Positions 50,644-53,228 of a DNA stretch of 64,000 nt are shown here, piece by piece. A model generated the notes under the pieces. It searched no databases and was not told the DNA's origin. It saw only the letters and a list, made by a program, of their open reading frames with translations. The DNA is from Escherichia coli (GTDB taxonomy: Bacteria > Pseudomonadota > Gammaproteobacteria > Enterobacterales > Enterobacteriaceae). Numbering within the stretch: position 1 is the stretch's first letter; the number at the start of each line of letters is the position of its first letter. The translations under genes and the position numbers were made by a program. The stretch lies in NCBI RefSeq assembly GCF_046105845.1, contig NZ_CP151004.1. One strand, 5' to 3'.

Positions 50644-50997
50644 TTAACTACAAATGTTCTTACTGTCTTCGGAACAATTTTGTCGAGCCAGGTTGCGGAC
50701 AATCACCTGAACCTTTTCCTGTTCACATCGCCAGGCCTCATCAATAATTTTCGCCGCCCATGCTGGAATATGCGGTGATAAGCGGTAATGAACCCACTTA
50801 CCTTGCTTGCGATCCAGCAATAGCCCGCTTTCACGAAGAAGCGCCAGGTGGCGGGATATCTTGGGCTGCGACTGATCGAGGGCAGTACAGAGATCGCAGA
50901 CACATAACTCTCCCAGCTCGCTTAGCAGTAAAACGATGCCCAGACGGGTCTCATCAGCAAGAATTTTGAACAGTTGGATGGGTAACAGAAATGACAT
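50644..50997 (-). CDS. arsR: Arsenical resistance operon repressor ArsR (canonical, CVC metal site)
   Basis: 117-aa ORF with ELCVCDLC As(III)-binding motif and ArsR HTH. Confidence 0.95.
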   Translation of the reverse strand: MSFLLPIQLFKILADETRLGIVLLLSELGELCVCDLCTALDQSQPKISRHLALLRESGLLLDRKQGKWVHYRLSPHIPAWAAKIIDEAWRCEQEKVQVIVRNLARQNCSEDSKNICS

Positions 50998-51148
50998 ATT
51001 GCGCTCCTGATTGTTGCCGGTAGTGTCTCTCTTCGAAGCGGATAAGTCAAAAACATATATGACTTAACGAATATGTAAGTGTGGAGAAAGGTATAGATGT
51101 GAATTAAGCGTTGGGTATTCATTTGAAAGGAGGTCTGAATCAGGACGT

Positions 51149-51233
51149 AAAAAAACCGACTTTGCGTCGGTTTTTTACTTTCCAGCCCTGAGTTGGTGGC
51201 TCTGGCTGGAGTGAGAGAGCTCTTATCTAACAG
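51149..51233 (-). ncRNA. agrB: agr-type antisense sRNA repeat (probably agrB), antitoxin of dinQ
   Basis: About 85 nt between arsR and dinQ; minus-strand transcript would end at hairpin ccgacgcaaagtcgg plus U-tract; body is complementary to a dinQ leader segment (ctggccggagtgagagagttcttatctaaca at about 51632-51662); A/B assignment from recalled K-12 order. Confidence 0.5.
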
Positions 51234-51383
51234 TTCAATACTATTAGCCAGTGGCTAACATTGCAAGAATTAGCGATTTCTTCAGCTGGAGAAGGGACAG
51301 TTTGCTATACATGTTGGTGAAAGAGGATTTATATACTTTCATCGGGTCGCTGCCGTACCAAGCCTTGTCCGAATCCGGACGTA

Positions 51384-51467
51384 AAAAAACCGACTTCGCG
51401 TCGGTTTTTTACTTTCCAGCCCTGAGTTGGTGGCTCTGGTTGGAGTGAGAATGCCATCATCTAACGC
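51384..51467 (-). ncRNA. agrA: agr-type antisense sRNA repeat (probably agrA)
   Basis: Second copy of the same repeat and hairpin, 235 bp from the first. Confidence 0.5.
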
Positions 51468-51529
51468 ATCAATGCTAATACCATACTGAAACTATTGCAA
51501 GGACGTGCTGGTTTTATAACCTGCATGTA

Positions 51530-51545
51530 CTGTATGATTATCCAG
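51530..51545. promoter_or_regulatory. LexA (SOS) box at the dinQ promoter
   Basis: ctgtatgattatccag fits CTGT-N8-(A/C)CAG; about 195 bp upstream of the dinQ ORF. Confidence 0.55.
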
Positions 51546-51738
51546 TTAGCTCTGAGGCATTTTCACTCTGGTAATGCGCATAAACGCTTTCAAAGTCCTG
51601 GTCAGAAGTACGGGTGGTGCCGTTAACTGATGCTCTGGCCGGAGTGAGAGAGTTCTTATCTAACAATGAGACATGCGCCGTGACAGGCAGTGGATGAGTA
51701 AGCGGATGCATTCTCACTCCATCGCATGGAGAAAACGG

Positions 51739-51822
51739 GTGATTGATAAAGCAATCATCGTTCTTGGGGCGTTAATTGCGCTGCTGGAACTGATCCGCTT
51801 TCTGCTTCAGCTTCTGAACTGA
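51739..51822 (+). CDS. dinQ: Type I toxin DinQ (27-aa membrane peptide)
   Basis: GTG-initiated 27-codon ORF translating to (M)IDKAIIVLGALIALLELIRFLLQLLN, matching DinQ as recalled. Confidence 0.7.
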   Translation: MIDKAIIVLGALIALLELIRFLLQLLN

Positions 51823-51838
51823 TAGCGGAAACGTAACT

Positions 51839-51868
51839 AAGGGCAAAGAGCACACCACTCTTTGCCCT
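51839..51868. terminator. Hairpin between convergent dinQ and gor (bidirectional terminator)
   Basis: Perfect 11-bp stem agggcaaagag / ctctttgccct followed by ttaacattt. Confidence 0.6.
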
Positions 51869-51875
51869 TTAACAT

Positions 51876-53228
51876 TTAACGCATGGTCACGAACTCTTCT
51901 GCCGCCGTCGGGTGAATGGCGACGGTATTGTCGAAGTCTTTTTTGGTCGCCCCCATCTTCAGCGCCACCGCGAAGCCCTGCAACATTTCATCCATACCAA
52001 AACCAATGCCGTGAATTCCGACAATCTTCTCTTCCGGTCCAACGCATACCAGTTTCATGCGGCACGGCTGGCGGTGAGTGGTGACGGCGGTATACATCGC
52101 GGTGAAAGAGGATTTATACACTTTCACCTGATCGTCGCCGTACTGCTCGCGCGCCTGCGGTTCCGTTAAACCAACAGTACCAATCGGCGGATGGCTGAAG
52201 ACCACGGTCGGAATGTTGCTGTAATCCAGATGCTCATCAGGCTTGTTATTAAACAGGCGTTCAGAGAGACGGCGACCCGCTGCAACTGCCACCGGTGTCA
52301 GTTCCACTGCACCCGTGTTATCGCCCACCGCGTAAATACCTTCAACGTTGGTGTTTTGATATTTATCGACGACGATATAGCCTTTTTCGTTGGTTTTTAC
52401 ACCAGCGGCTTCCAGGTTGATGTTGTCATTGGCAGGCTCGCGACCAATCGCCCAAATCAGGCAATCTACCGTTTCACTGCGACCATCTTCCAGCTCCAGC
52501 GTCAGGCTGCCGTCGGCATTTTTCACCACCGCTTTCGGGATGGCGTTGGTGTGCAGCTGCGGGCCTTCGGCGTTCATCACTTCGACCAGCGTTTCAGAGA
52601 TCATCGGGTCGAAGCTGCGCAGCGGCGCATGTTTACGCACAAACAGATGCGTTTTCGCGCCGAGGCCGTTAATCACGCCCGCCAGCTCAACGGCGATGTA
52701 ACCCGCGCCAACAACCGCCACGCGCTCTGGCAAAGCAGGAAGGGCGAAGAAGCCATCAGAATCAATACCGTATTCCACGCCCGGAATATCCGGGTGGCTC
52801 GGACGACCGCCGGTGGCGATCAGAATATGATCGGCCGTGATGGTTTCGCCGTTTACCTCCAGCGTTTTGGCATCAACGAAGCGGGCAAAGCCTTTGATTA
52901 CATCAACGTTATTTTTACCGAGCACGTTTTCATAGGAAGTATGAATACGGTCGATATAGGCGGTACGGCTGGCGATCAACGTTTCCCAGTTGAATTTATT
53001 TATAGTGGTATCGAAACCATAATCCGGACCGTACATGTGGATCGCTTCACGGATTTGCGCCGCGTGCCACATCACTTTCTTCGGTACGCAGCCGACGTTC
53101 ACGCAGGTGCCGCCCAGCTCTTTGGCTTCAATCAGCGCGCATTTCTGGCCGTACATAGCCGCGCGGTTGATGGAGGCGATACCGCCGCTGCCGCCGCCGA
53201 TGGCGATGTAATCATAGTGTTTAGTCAT
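51876..53228 (-). CDS. gor: Glutathione-disulfide reductase
   Basis: 450-aa ORF with FAD-binding GGGSGG and redox-active [10 protein letters not shown] motif. Confidence 0.95.

Follow-up and report, generated by a model that had tools for sequence, protein, structure and literature searches.

An intact dinQ-agrAB type I toxin-antitoxin module with K-12-type specificity between arsR and gor in an Escherichia chromosome

Introduction

The dinQ-agrAB locus of Escherichia coli MG1655 is reportedly the subject of Weel-Sneve 2013 and Kristiansen 2016. In E. coli K-12 it has been characterized as a type I toxin-antitoxin locus (PMC3567139, PMC5066626), in which LexA control of dinQ was shown (HI 4.83; PMC3567139) and for which the numbering of the dinQ mRNA, its elements 1-4 and the agrB target G88-A119 were defined by Kristiansen et al. 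(PMC5066626). Toxicity of the peptide and its neutralization by antisense RNA have been shown for K-12 (PMC3567139, PMC5066626) and for a plasmid homologue (PMC12317039), and the plasmid-borne dqlB-agrB pair is a toxin-antitoxin system that stabilizes plasmids (PMC12317039).

A 64-kb stretch of DNA (the whole stretch analyzed, hereafter the window) had been read from its letters alone, and an SOS-controlled dinQ-agrAB type I module was predicted between arsR and gor. Every defining sequence feature of this module was found, in the same order, and alignment to K-12 dinQ, agrA and agrB, a check proposed with the original prediction, showed that the peptide and the LexA operator are identical and that all elements map. 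Window positions 51147-51875 are almost certainly an intact copy of the chromosomal dinQ-agrAB type I toxin-antitoxin module of Escherichia, with the specificity of the K-12 type, and no sequence evidence speaks against this identification. The locus is already known and well studied in E. coli, and it is intact and ordinary here; as a discovery it is of low interest because the system is known at textbook level. The result is confirmatory in that a reader of the sequence alone was able to recover a three-gene regulatory module of fewer than 100 codons, two genes of which, the agr RNAs, are still left out by NCBI automatic annotation.

Results and Discussion

Identity and setting of the locus

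The module lies between the following genes:

50644-50997, minus strand: arsR, left flank of the module
51876-53228, minus strand: gor, right flank of the module

The gap between arsR and gor measures 878 bp and contains all of the features named in the original prediction; as in K-12, dinQ is flanked by the ars operon and gor. In the curated MG1655 record, dinQ (b4613), agrA (b4712, dinQ-proximal) and agrB (b4713, arsR-proximal) occur in the order seen in the window, and T1TAdb likewise puts agrA between dinQ and agrB. Based on the MG1655 annotation and the T1TAdb order, the copy at 51149-51230 was named agrB and that at 51383-51464 agrA.

Megablast located the region in 5,422 of 5,426 complete E. 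coli genomes, where the match covers an annotated dinQ, and dinQ is annotated between arsR and gor in more than 5,400 RefSeq E. coli genomes. Over 51000-51900 (901 bp) the window is 94.4% identical to K-12 and 98.4% identical to the best complete genome, and the 14-kb stretch around the locus has at most 98.2% identity to any complete E. coli. The window is Escherichia chromosome from a lineage absent from the complete E. coli collection, and is not K-12. The original expectation that standard gene calling would miss the module was half right: PGAP now annotates dinQ, and does so in every RefSeq E. coli record inspected, while among those records the agr RNAs are annotated only in the curated one of MG1655.

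The DinQ peptide

51739-51822, plus strand: dinQ coding sequence, with a GTG start, 27 sense codons and a TGA stop at 51820-51822
51839-51869, unstranded: terminator common to dinQ and gor, a 14-bp hairpin

The predicted 27-codon, GTG-initiated ORF encodes DinQ. Its GTG is nt 195 of the dinQ mRNA (+1 = 51545), and its translation, VIDKAIIVLGALIALLELIRFLLQLLN, is identical at 27 of 27 residues to K-12 WP_001295215.1, with one synonymous CTT/CTA difference between the coding sequences. The peptide matched the NCBIfam model NF041472 (toxin_DinQ), an equivalog model for ‘damage-inducible type I toxin DinQ’, with 54 bits against a cut-off of 30 (E 1.4e-14); a Pfam search returned no DinQ model. It is hydrophobic (GRAVY +1.79). 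The same peptide is encoded in E. albertii and Escherichia sp. E1V33, and it was unchanged in all 11 of the full-length E. coli loci fetched that have an open frame, the exceptions being dinQ of strain Z226-6, which has a nonsense codon, and the promoterless copy of EC958, which has L>Q. Loss of the frame in related genomes, named beforehand as evidence that would count against the prediction, was not seen apart from the nonsense codon of Z226-6. Relative to K-12, two bases in the stem of the dinQ/gor terminator have changed in a compensatory manner (51845 T>A with 51863 A>T).

LexA operator and dinQ promoter

51528-51547, unstranded: LexA operator TACTGTATGATTATCCAGTT, overlapping the dinQ -10 and transcription start
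51533-51538, plus strand: dinQ -10 TATGAT, within the LexA box
51506-51525, unstranded: candidate second, weak LexA operator CTG-N10-CTG, a 20-mer that matches 12 of 20 consensus positions

The core of the LexA box, CTG-N10-CAG, lies at 51530-51545, and TACTGTATGATTATCCAGTT is the sole exact match to TACTGT-N9-CAGT in the 64-kb window. The operator sequence is identical to that of K-12, KE55 and E. albertii. Its last base is 192 nt before the GTG, in agreement with the LexA-type box originally placed about 195 bp upstream of dinQ. A search with the perfect LexA palindrome TACTGTATATATATACAGTA at up to three mismatches gave no match, as the real box has five mismatches in its AT-rich spacer; CTG-N10-CAG and TACTGT-N9-CAGT were used instead. 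The element at 51506-51525 may represent a second operator.

The agrA and agrB antisense RNAs

51149-51230, minus strand: agrB, the arsR-proximal antitoxin RNA (82 nt; Rfam RF02891; MG1655 b4713)
51383-51464, minus strand: agrA, the dinQ-proximal paralogue (Rfam RF02891; MG1655 b4712)
51238-51266, minus strand: agrB promoter TTGCAA-17 nt-TAGTAT, 7 nt before the 5' U, read by eye
51472-51500, minus strand: agrA promoter TTGCAA-17 nt-TAGCAT, read by eye

Both copies matched the Rfam AgrB family RF02891 (gathering score 40) end to end: agrB with 108.1 bits (E 9e-20) at 51147-51230, and agrA with 99.7 bits (E 6.5e-18) at 51381-51464. These two intervals are identical at 77 of 84 positions. The 5' ends of agrB and agrA do not overlap dinQ and lie, respectively, 509 and 275 nt upstream of the GTG, both RNAs being on the minus strand and divergent from dinQ. 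The prediction of two direct repeats on the opposite strand holds, but the repeat unit exceeds the 85 nt that had been proposed: it spans 114 nt ungapped at 88% identity, or 135 nt if gaps are allowed (51133-51267 vs 51367-51501), at a spacing of 234 nt, and therefore takes in the promoter of each copy.

The agrB promoter sequence is conserved in K-12 and the agrA promoter is identical in all E. coli loci aligned; constitutive expression of agrB and its transcription start have been shown in K-12 only (PMC3567139). The agrB RNA folds into two hairpins including the terminator (z = -4.95). Each repeat had been said to end in one and the same hairpin followed by a U-tract. This is accurate for agrB, which ends in ccgacgcaaagtcgg plus a U-tract, while the agrA terminator, ccgacgcGaagtcgg, differs from it by one loop base (GCGAA vs GCAAA). 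A consensus promoter/terminator scan missed both agr promoters, which have 8 of 12 consensus matches, and also both terminators, because A-U pairs lengthen the stem into the U-tract. The promoters were thus read by eye, and the terminators by eye and by folding.

The dinQ leader and antisense pairing

51545-51875, plus strand: dinQ primary transcript, about 331 nt, with +1 = 51545 taken from the published numbering
51588, plus strand: +44 processing site, mapped from the published numbering
51560-51572, plus strand: element 1 (U16-C28), which keeps element 2 locked while the mRNA is full-length
51638-51650, plus strand: element 2 (G94-G106)
51711-51722, plus strand: element 3 (U167-U178)
51726-51731, plus strand: element 4 and Shine-Dalgarno (SD) GGAG (A182-G187), forming the SD-sequestering hairpin with element 3
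51632-51663, plus strand: agrB target (mRNA G88-A119), which contains element 2

The assignment of +1 to 51545 was tested on ten boundary residues (U16, C28, G88, G94, G106, A119, U167, U178, A182 and G187). All fit except C28, which is U here and keeps a G-U pair in duplex 1:2. The four published 5'-UTR elements are all present, base for base on the published numbering, and in the alignment the LexA box, target, elements 2-4, SD and peptide are unchanged from K-12. The minimum free energy (MFE) fold of the +1 RNA contains all 13 pairs of duplex 1:2 and the six-pair hairpin 3:4, and this hairpin is also in the MFE fold of the +44 RNA when the target is blocked. The probability that the SD is unpaired was 0.07 for the +1 RNA, 0.20 for the +44 RNA, and 0.02 for the +44 RNA with nt 88-119 blocked to mimic bound agrB. 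The published 2:3 duplex was not predicted by ViennaRNA for the +44 RNA of the window (pair mass 0.2), and the same was true of K-12, in which SHAPE data support that duplex. For three other natural alleles the duplex was predicted, with 7 to 9 pairs. The missing prediction thus appears to reflect a shortcoming of the energy model and not a peculiarity of this locus.

The repeats had been predicted to be complementary to the dinQ leader, and the leader does carry a third direct copy of a 34-nt box at 51632-51665, with 94% identity to the agrB copy and 79% to the agrA copy. The 5' 32 nt of agrB pair with dinQ nt 88-119 through 30 Watson-Crick (WC) pairs and one G-U pair, with one mismatch (duplex dG -58 kcal/mol), and agrA pairs with the same target through 24 WC and four G-U pairs, with four mismatches of 32 (dG -41). 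The substitution A11>G in the window agrB, relative to K-12, gives a G-U pair with dinQ and pairing is kept. By the same count over 32 nt, K-12 agrB makes 31 WC pairs and K-12 agrA 25 WC and four G-U pairs, in line with the published K-12 pairing of 30/31 for agrB and 25/31 for agrA (PMC3567139). In vitro, K-12 agrA neither bound nor repressed +44 dinQ (PMC5066626).

Predicted mechanism

The steps of the mechanism were shown experimentally in K-12 (PMC3567139, PMC5066626); here we infer them, and with them toxin-antitoxin function at the window locus, from sequence identity. LexA on the operator over the dinQ -10 and start would restrict transcription of dinQ to the time after DNA damage. The 331-nt primary transcript would be untranslatable, since element 1 would pair with element 2 and leave element 3 free to sequester the SD. 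Removal of the first 43 nt would yield the +44 RNA, in which element 2 could pair with element 3 and so free the SD; the 27-aa, GTG-initiated peptide would then be made, insert into the inner membrane and depolarize it. Constitutive 82-nt agrB, via its 5' 32 nt, would pair with dinQ nt 88-119 and cover element 2, and its binding would both re-close the SD hairpin and create an RNase III substrate, such that toxin synthesis is held down. The recognition box of agrA mismatches the dinQ of the source strain, and agrA would not be expected to act as antitoxin here.

Co-varying specificity alleles across strains

Across strains, the middle 8 to 9 nt of the dinQ target box (mRNA nt about 106-114) vary as discrete alleles:

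GAGAGTTCTT: K-12 and the window; exact 48-mer in 1,681 complete E. coli genomes
AATGCCATT: CREC-591, BL12 and isolate 648; exact 48-mer in 1,922 complete E. coli genomes
TAGTCGTC: ATCC 11775 and DG342-2; exact 48-mer in 418 complete E. coli genomes
AATACCATT: O157:H7
AATGCCCAC: CFSAN061763

About 20 loci were sampled for this survey, and counts of exact 48-mers and of a 241-mer served as proxies for the wider collection. Wherever the promoter was intact, each sampled genome had one agr copy that forms 29-31 WC pairs of 32 with the dinQ of that genome, and there are at least five target-box alleles, each with a near-perfect agr partner in the same genome. The cognate copy is the distal one (agrB) in K-12, the window and CFSAN061763, and the proximal one (agrA) in CREC-591, isolate 648, O157:H7, DG342-2 and E69. 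A 241-nt query from CREC-591, covering the proximal agr 5' end and the dinQ target, was at least 99% identical in 1,669 of 5,426 genomes. Based on these matches, proximal ‘agrA’ is the near-perfect antisense in about 31% of complete E. coli genomes.

This natural covariation of the target box and the agr 5' ends supports an intermolecular duplex. It also suggests that proximal ‘agrA’ is the cognate antisense in roughly one third of E. coli, in E. albertii and in a cryptic Escherichia lineage, and that the roles of agrA and agrB in K-12 are not general. Gene conversion among the three direct copies of the 34-nt box is the probable means by which the alleles were exchanged. If the cognate antisense is truly lineage-dependent, conclusions drawn from K-12 agrA and agrB mutants would not be transferable to O157:H7, B2 and other lineages, and the locus would offer, in compact and natural form, a case of toxin-antitoxin specificity that evolves through gene conversion.

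History of the locus

51306-51358, minus strand: gor relic between agrB and agrA, an 83% identical direct repeat of gor-internal 52091-52143

The local alignment of the gor relic scores 61, against a maximum of 28 among shuffles, and its 11-aa translation resembles Gor 371-382. The relic ends 8 nt before the agrA repeat unit and is not a functional part of the module. In both E. albertii and Escherichia sp. E1V33 there is a single agr, which occupies the agrA position and is cognate; in E. albertii, relics of the gor 3' end and of gor 52126-52144 lie directly beside it. Because the gor-relic junction is common to the window and E. albertii, the arrangement suggests that [agr-dinQ-3' gor] was long ago duplicated in tandem and that the left copy then decayed, and agrB may be the surviving orphan antisense gene of that decayed duplicate. 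A duplication of agrA and agrB within E. coli was considered and dropped, given the E. albertii gor relics at the same junction next to a single agr. A possible relic of the dinQ 3' end at 51280-51300 was not significant, as 165 of 500 shuffles scored as well.

Single-agr E. coli (ATCC 11775, BL12) were likewise rejected as the ancestral state: in them the left flank of agrB is joined to the promoter and 5' end of agrA, which makes them recombinant deletions between agrB and agrA. In about 810-830 genomes (about 15%), such as ST131 strain EC958, agr has recombined with the homologous box in the dinQ leader. The dinQ promoter, the LexA box and the agr promoter are thereby lost, together with the first ~119 nt of the mRNA, up to and including A119 of the shared box; PGAP still annotates dinQ in these genomes.

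Taken together, we lean towards a joint reading of the locus as a polymorphic specificity switch in which the cognate copy depends on the strain, agrB is the orphan of a decayed duplicate, and losses are repeat-mediated. No description of the allele covariation, the promoter loss or the gor-relic duplication was found in the literature searched, coverage of which was incomplete. The allele-swap and deletion polymorphisms might be new; they are the sole parts of this analysis that might be, and they concern the population, not the window.

Alternative readings of the window

Three alternatives bear on what the window encodes and whether it works. Among natural strains, decay of this locus does occur: about 15% of complete E. 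coli genomes, EC958 included, are without the dinQ promoter, LexA box and agr promoter, and dinQ of Z226-6 is interrupted by its nonsense codon. A decayed remnant in the source genome, with similarity and no function, is nevertheless hardly credible, as the window is intact in both agr promoters and terminators, the LexA box, the -10, the four UTR elements, the SD, the ORF and the terminator. A different product is conceivable too, namely the 49-aa ATG ORF at 51673-51822 that was first annotated for dinQ, which carries the N-terminal extension MRRDRQWMSKRMHSHSIAWRKR. This frame is open in the window and appears in the list of ORFs; it encloses the dinQ coding sequence, so that dinQ, originally described as too short for that list, sits inside one of its entries. 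However, translation from the GTG was shown in K-12 (PMC3567139), a GGAG Shine-Dalgarno precedes the GTG by 7 nt, the alignment to the NCBIfam DinQ model is confined to the C-terminal 27 aa, the plasmid homologue pJARS35 has an ATG exactly at the GTG position, and the 27-aa form is what PGAP annotates. We consider the longer product extremely unlikely and retain the 27-aa GTG peptide.

The strain survey provides the case for the remaining alternative, that the acting antitoxin in the source strain is the proximal copy agrA rather than agrB. The proximal copy is a near-perfect antisense in many E. coli (CREC-591, isolate 648, O157:H7), the agrA-to-target stretch of CREC-591 recurs at 99% identity or more in the 1,669 of 5,426 genomes noted above, and the outgroups E. 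albertii and Escherichia sp. E1V33 have a proximal copy only, which is cognate. The target box of the window is, however, the K-12 allele GAGAGTTCTT, with which agrB forms 30 WC pairs and one G-U pair (dG -58) and agrA only 24 WC and four G-U pairs with four mismatches (dG -41), and K-12 agrA, which pairs comparably poorly, was inactive on +44 dinQ in vitro (PMC5066626). A role for agrA as the antitoxin of this strain is very improbable, and agrB is retained as the cognate antisense of an intact module.

Comparison with known systems

In the Ibs/Sib and Zor/Orz systems, paralogous antisense RNAs tell their cognate toxin mRNAs apart by a few variable nucleotides in a conserved pairing region, and each antisense has its own toxin gene, whereas at dinQ two antisense paralogues face one toxin. 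These systems serve only as an analogy for the agr allele classes. The tisB-istR1 system uses a ribosome standby site where dinQ has a four-element SD switch, and has one antisense gene as opposed to the two paralogues at dinQ. Its peptide and RNAs are unrelated in sequence to those of dinQ-agrAB. The likeness, drawn in part in PMC3567139, lies in a toxin mRNA that LexA controls and that cannot be translated before its 5' end is processed, a divergent, constitutive trans-antisense RNA with RNase III cleavage of the duplex, and a small depolarizing inner-membrane peptide.

Homologues of dinQ/dqlB with adjacent AgrB-like RNAs were found in 3,147 plasmid records, mostly of conjugative plasmids. 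In these dqlB/dinQ-agrB loci (IncX and other conjugative plasmids), the toxin (NF041473 or NF041472) and its 5' UTR are homologous to those of the chromosomal module, and one AgrB-family RNA lies alongside, carrying a matching recognition box of its own. They differ in having a single antisense gene and in serving plasmid maintenance rather than the SOS response. Two plasmid dinQ loci, L013 and L014, were checked for CTG-N10-CAG upstream of the toxin, and neither has it; one such motif occurs upstream of dqlB in L015.

The closest system is dinQ-agrAB of K-12 MG1655, with which the window shares the locus, flanks, order, peptide, LexA operator, 5'-UTR elements and target-box allele, agrB being the cognate antisense in both. 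Most of the changes between them fall in the non-functional gor relic. Beyond these, the agrA recognition box of the window differs at four positions, agrB carries A11>G and dinQ C28>U (both giving G-U pairs), and the terminator stem carries its compensatory pair. Since these window-specific substitutions (C28>U, A11>G and the terminator pair) keep pairing, they favor the identification of the locus as dinQ-agrAB.

Co-variation of the dinQ target box and agr alleles

The agr RNAs of the dinQ-agrAB type I toxin-antitoxin locus pair through their 5' ends with a target box in the dinQ leader (mRNA G88-A119). Across Escherichia, at least five alleles were identified in which the middle of this target box co-varies with the agr 5' ends, as seen in the window and in comparison loci L001-L012, L018, L024 and L027. 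The co-varying segments in the window are:

51650-51658, middle of the dinQ target box
51213-51221, agr 5' end
51447-51455, agr 5' end

The near-perfect antisense of dinQ is agrB in both K-12 and the window; in ∼31% of complete E. coli genomes (1669 of 5426, at ≥99% identity to the 241-nt agrA-to-target query from CREC-591) it is the proximal copy, 'agrA'.

Positions 51441-51454 and 51708-51721 form a perfect 14-nt inverted repeat, and the agrA RNA therefore holds an exact copy of element 3 of the dinQ 5' UTR (GCAUUCUCACUCCA). The published pairing of this element with element 2, which frees the Shine-Dalgarno sequence in the +44 RNA, was predicted by ViennaRNA when the target allele was AAUGCCAUU, UAGUCGUC or AAUGCCCAC, none of them the K-12 type, and was not predicted by the same tool for the allele shared by K-12 and the window. 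The 2:3 duplex would be longer with target alleles bearing AAUGC.

Deletions and degenerate copies

EC958 (L003 700-860) has lost both the dinQ and agr promoters, together with the LexA box and the initial ∼119 nt of the mRNA (up to and including the shared box, A119), through recombination of the agr box with its homologue in the dinQ leader. Roughly 15% of the complete E. coli genomes carry a deletion of this type; the dinQ ORF persists without a promoter and retains its PGAP annotation, and in EC958 it carries the substitution L15Q. Strain Z226-6 (L012 1038-1085) harbors a dinQ pseudogene with a nonsense codon in place of Glu17; both agr genes are intact.

Three further strains (BL12, 2022H048 and ATCC 11775) possess one agr gene, an agrB-agrA recombinant created by a 234-bp deletion, with its left flank from agrB and its promoter and 5' end from agrA. 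Each recombinant is the cognate antisense of the dinQ allele in its own genome. The neighbor of the locus in 2022H048, ATCC 11775 and EC958 is arsC, not arsR.

The stem of the common dinQ/gor terminator (51839-51869) carries a compensatory double substitution relative to K-12, at 51845 and 51863, that converts a T-A pair to an A-T pair; the hairpin additionally has one loop change.

Annotation and related loci

RefSeq PGAP records (L001, L002) annotate dinQ and lack agrA and agrB, though Rfam holds a family for them (RF02891); both are annotated only in the curated MG1655 record, NC_000913.3. The Rfam description reads 'ArsR-gov region', a typographical error for gor.

A 59-aa ORF lies antisense to the dinQ leader in the window (51538-51717, minus strand), and a 'hypothetical protein' is annotated antisense to the leader in some RefSeq genomes (L006 1137-1310; L010 837-1010). 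This ORF over the dinQ 5' UTR is probably a spurious call.

Chromosomal loci of Citrobacter werkmanii (L016, L017) and C. amalonaticus (L025) contain two to four AgrB-like RNA genes in tandem arrays, spaced about 116 nt apart and adjoining dqlB toxin ORFs.

Possible origin of the repeats

Between agrB and agrA lies a 53-nt copy of an internal gor segment (51306-51358), 83% identical to 52091-52143 and in the same orientation. This relic ends 8 nt before the agrA repeat unit, and E. albertii (L018) carries gor relics at the same junction. The arrangement suggests that a segment comprising agr-dinQ-3' gor was duplicated in tandem long ago. The window copy of the relic is better preserved than that of K-12, which has suffered a 4-bp deletion.
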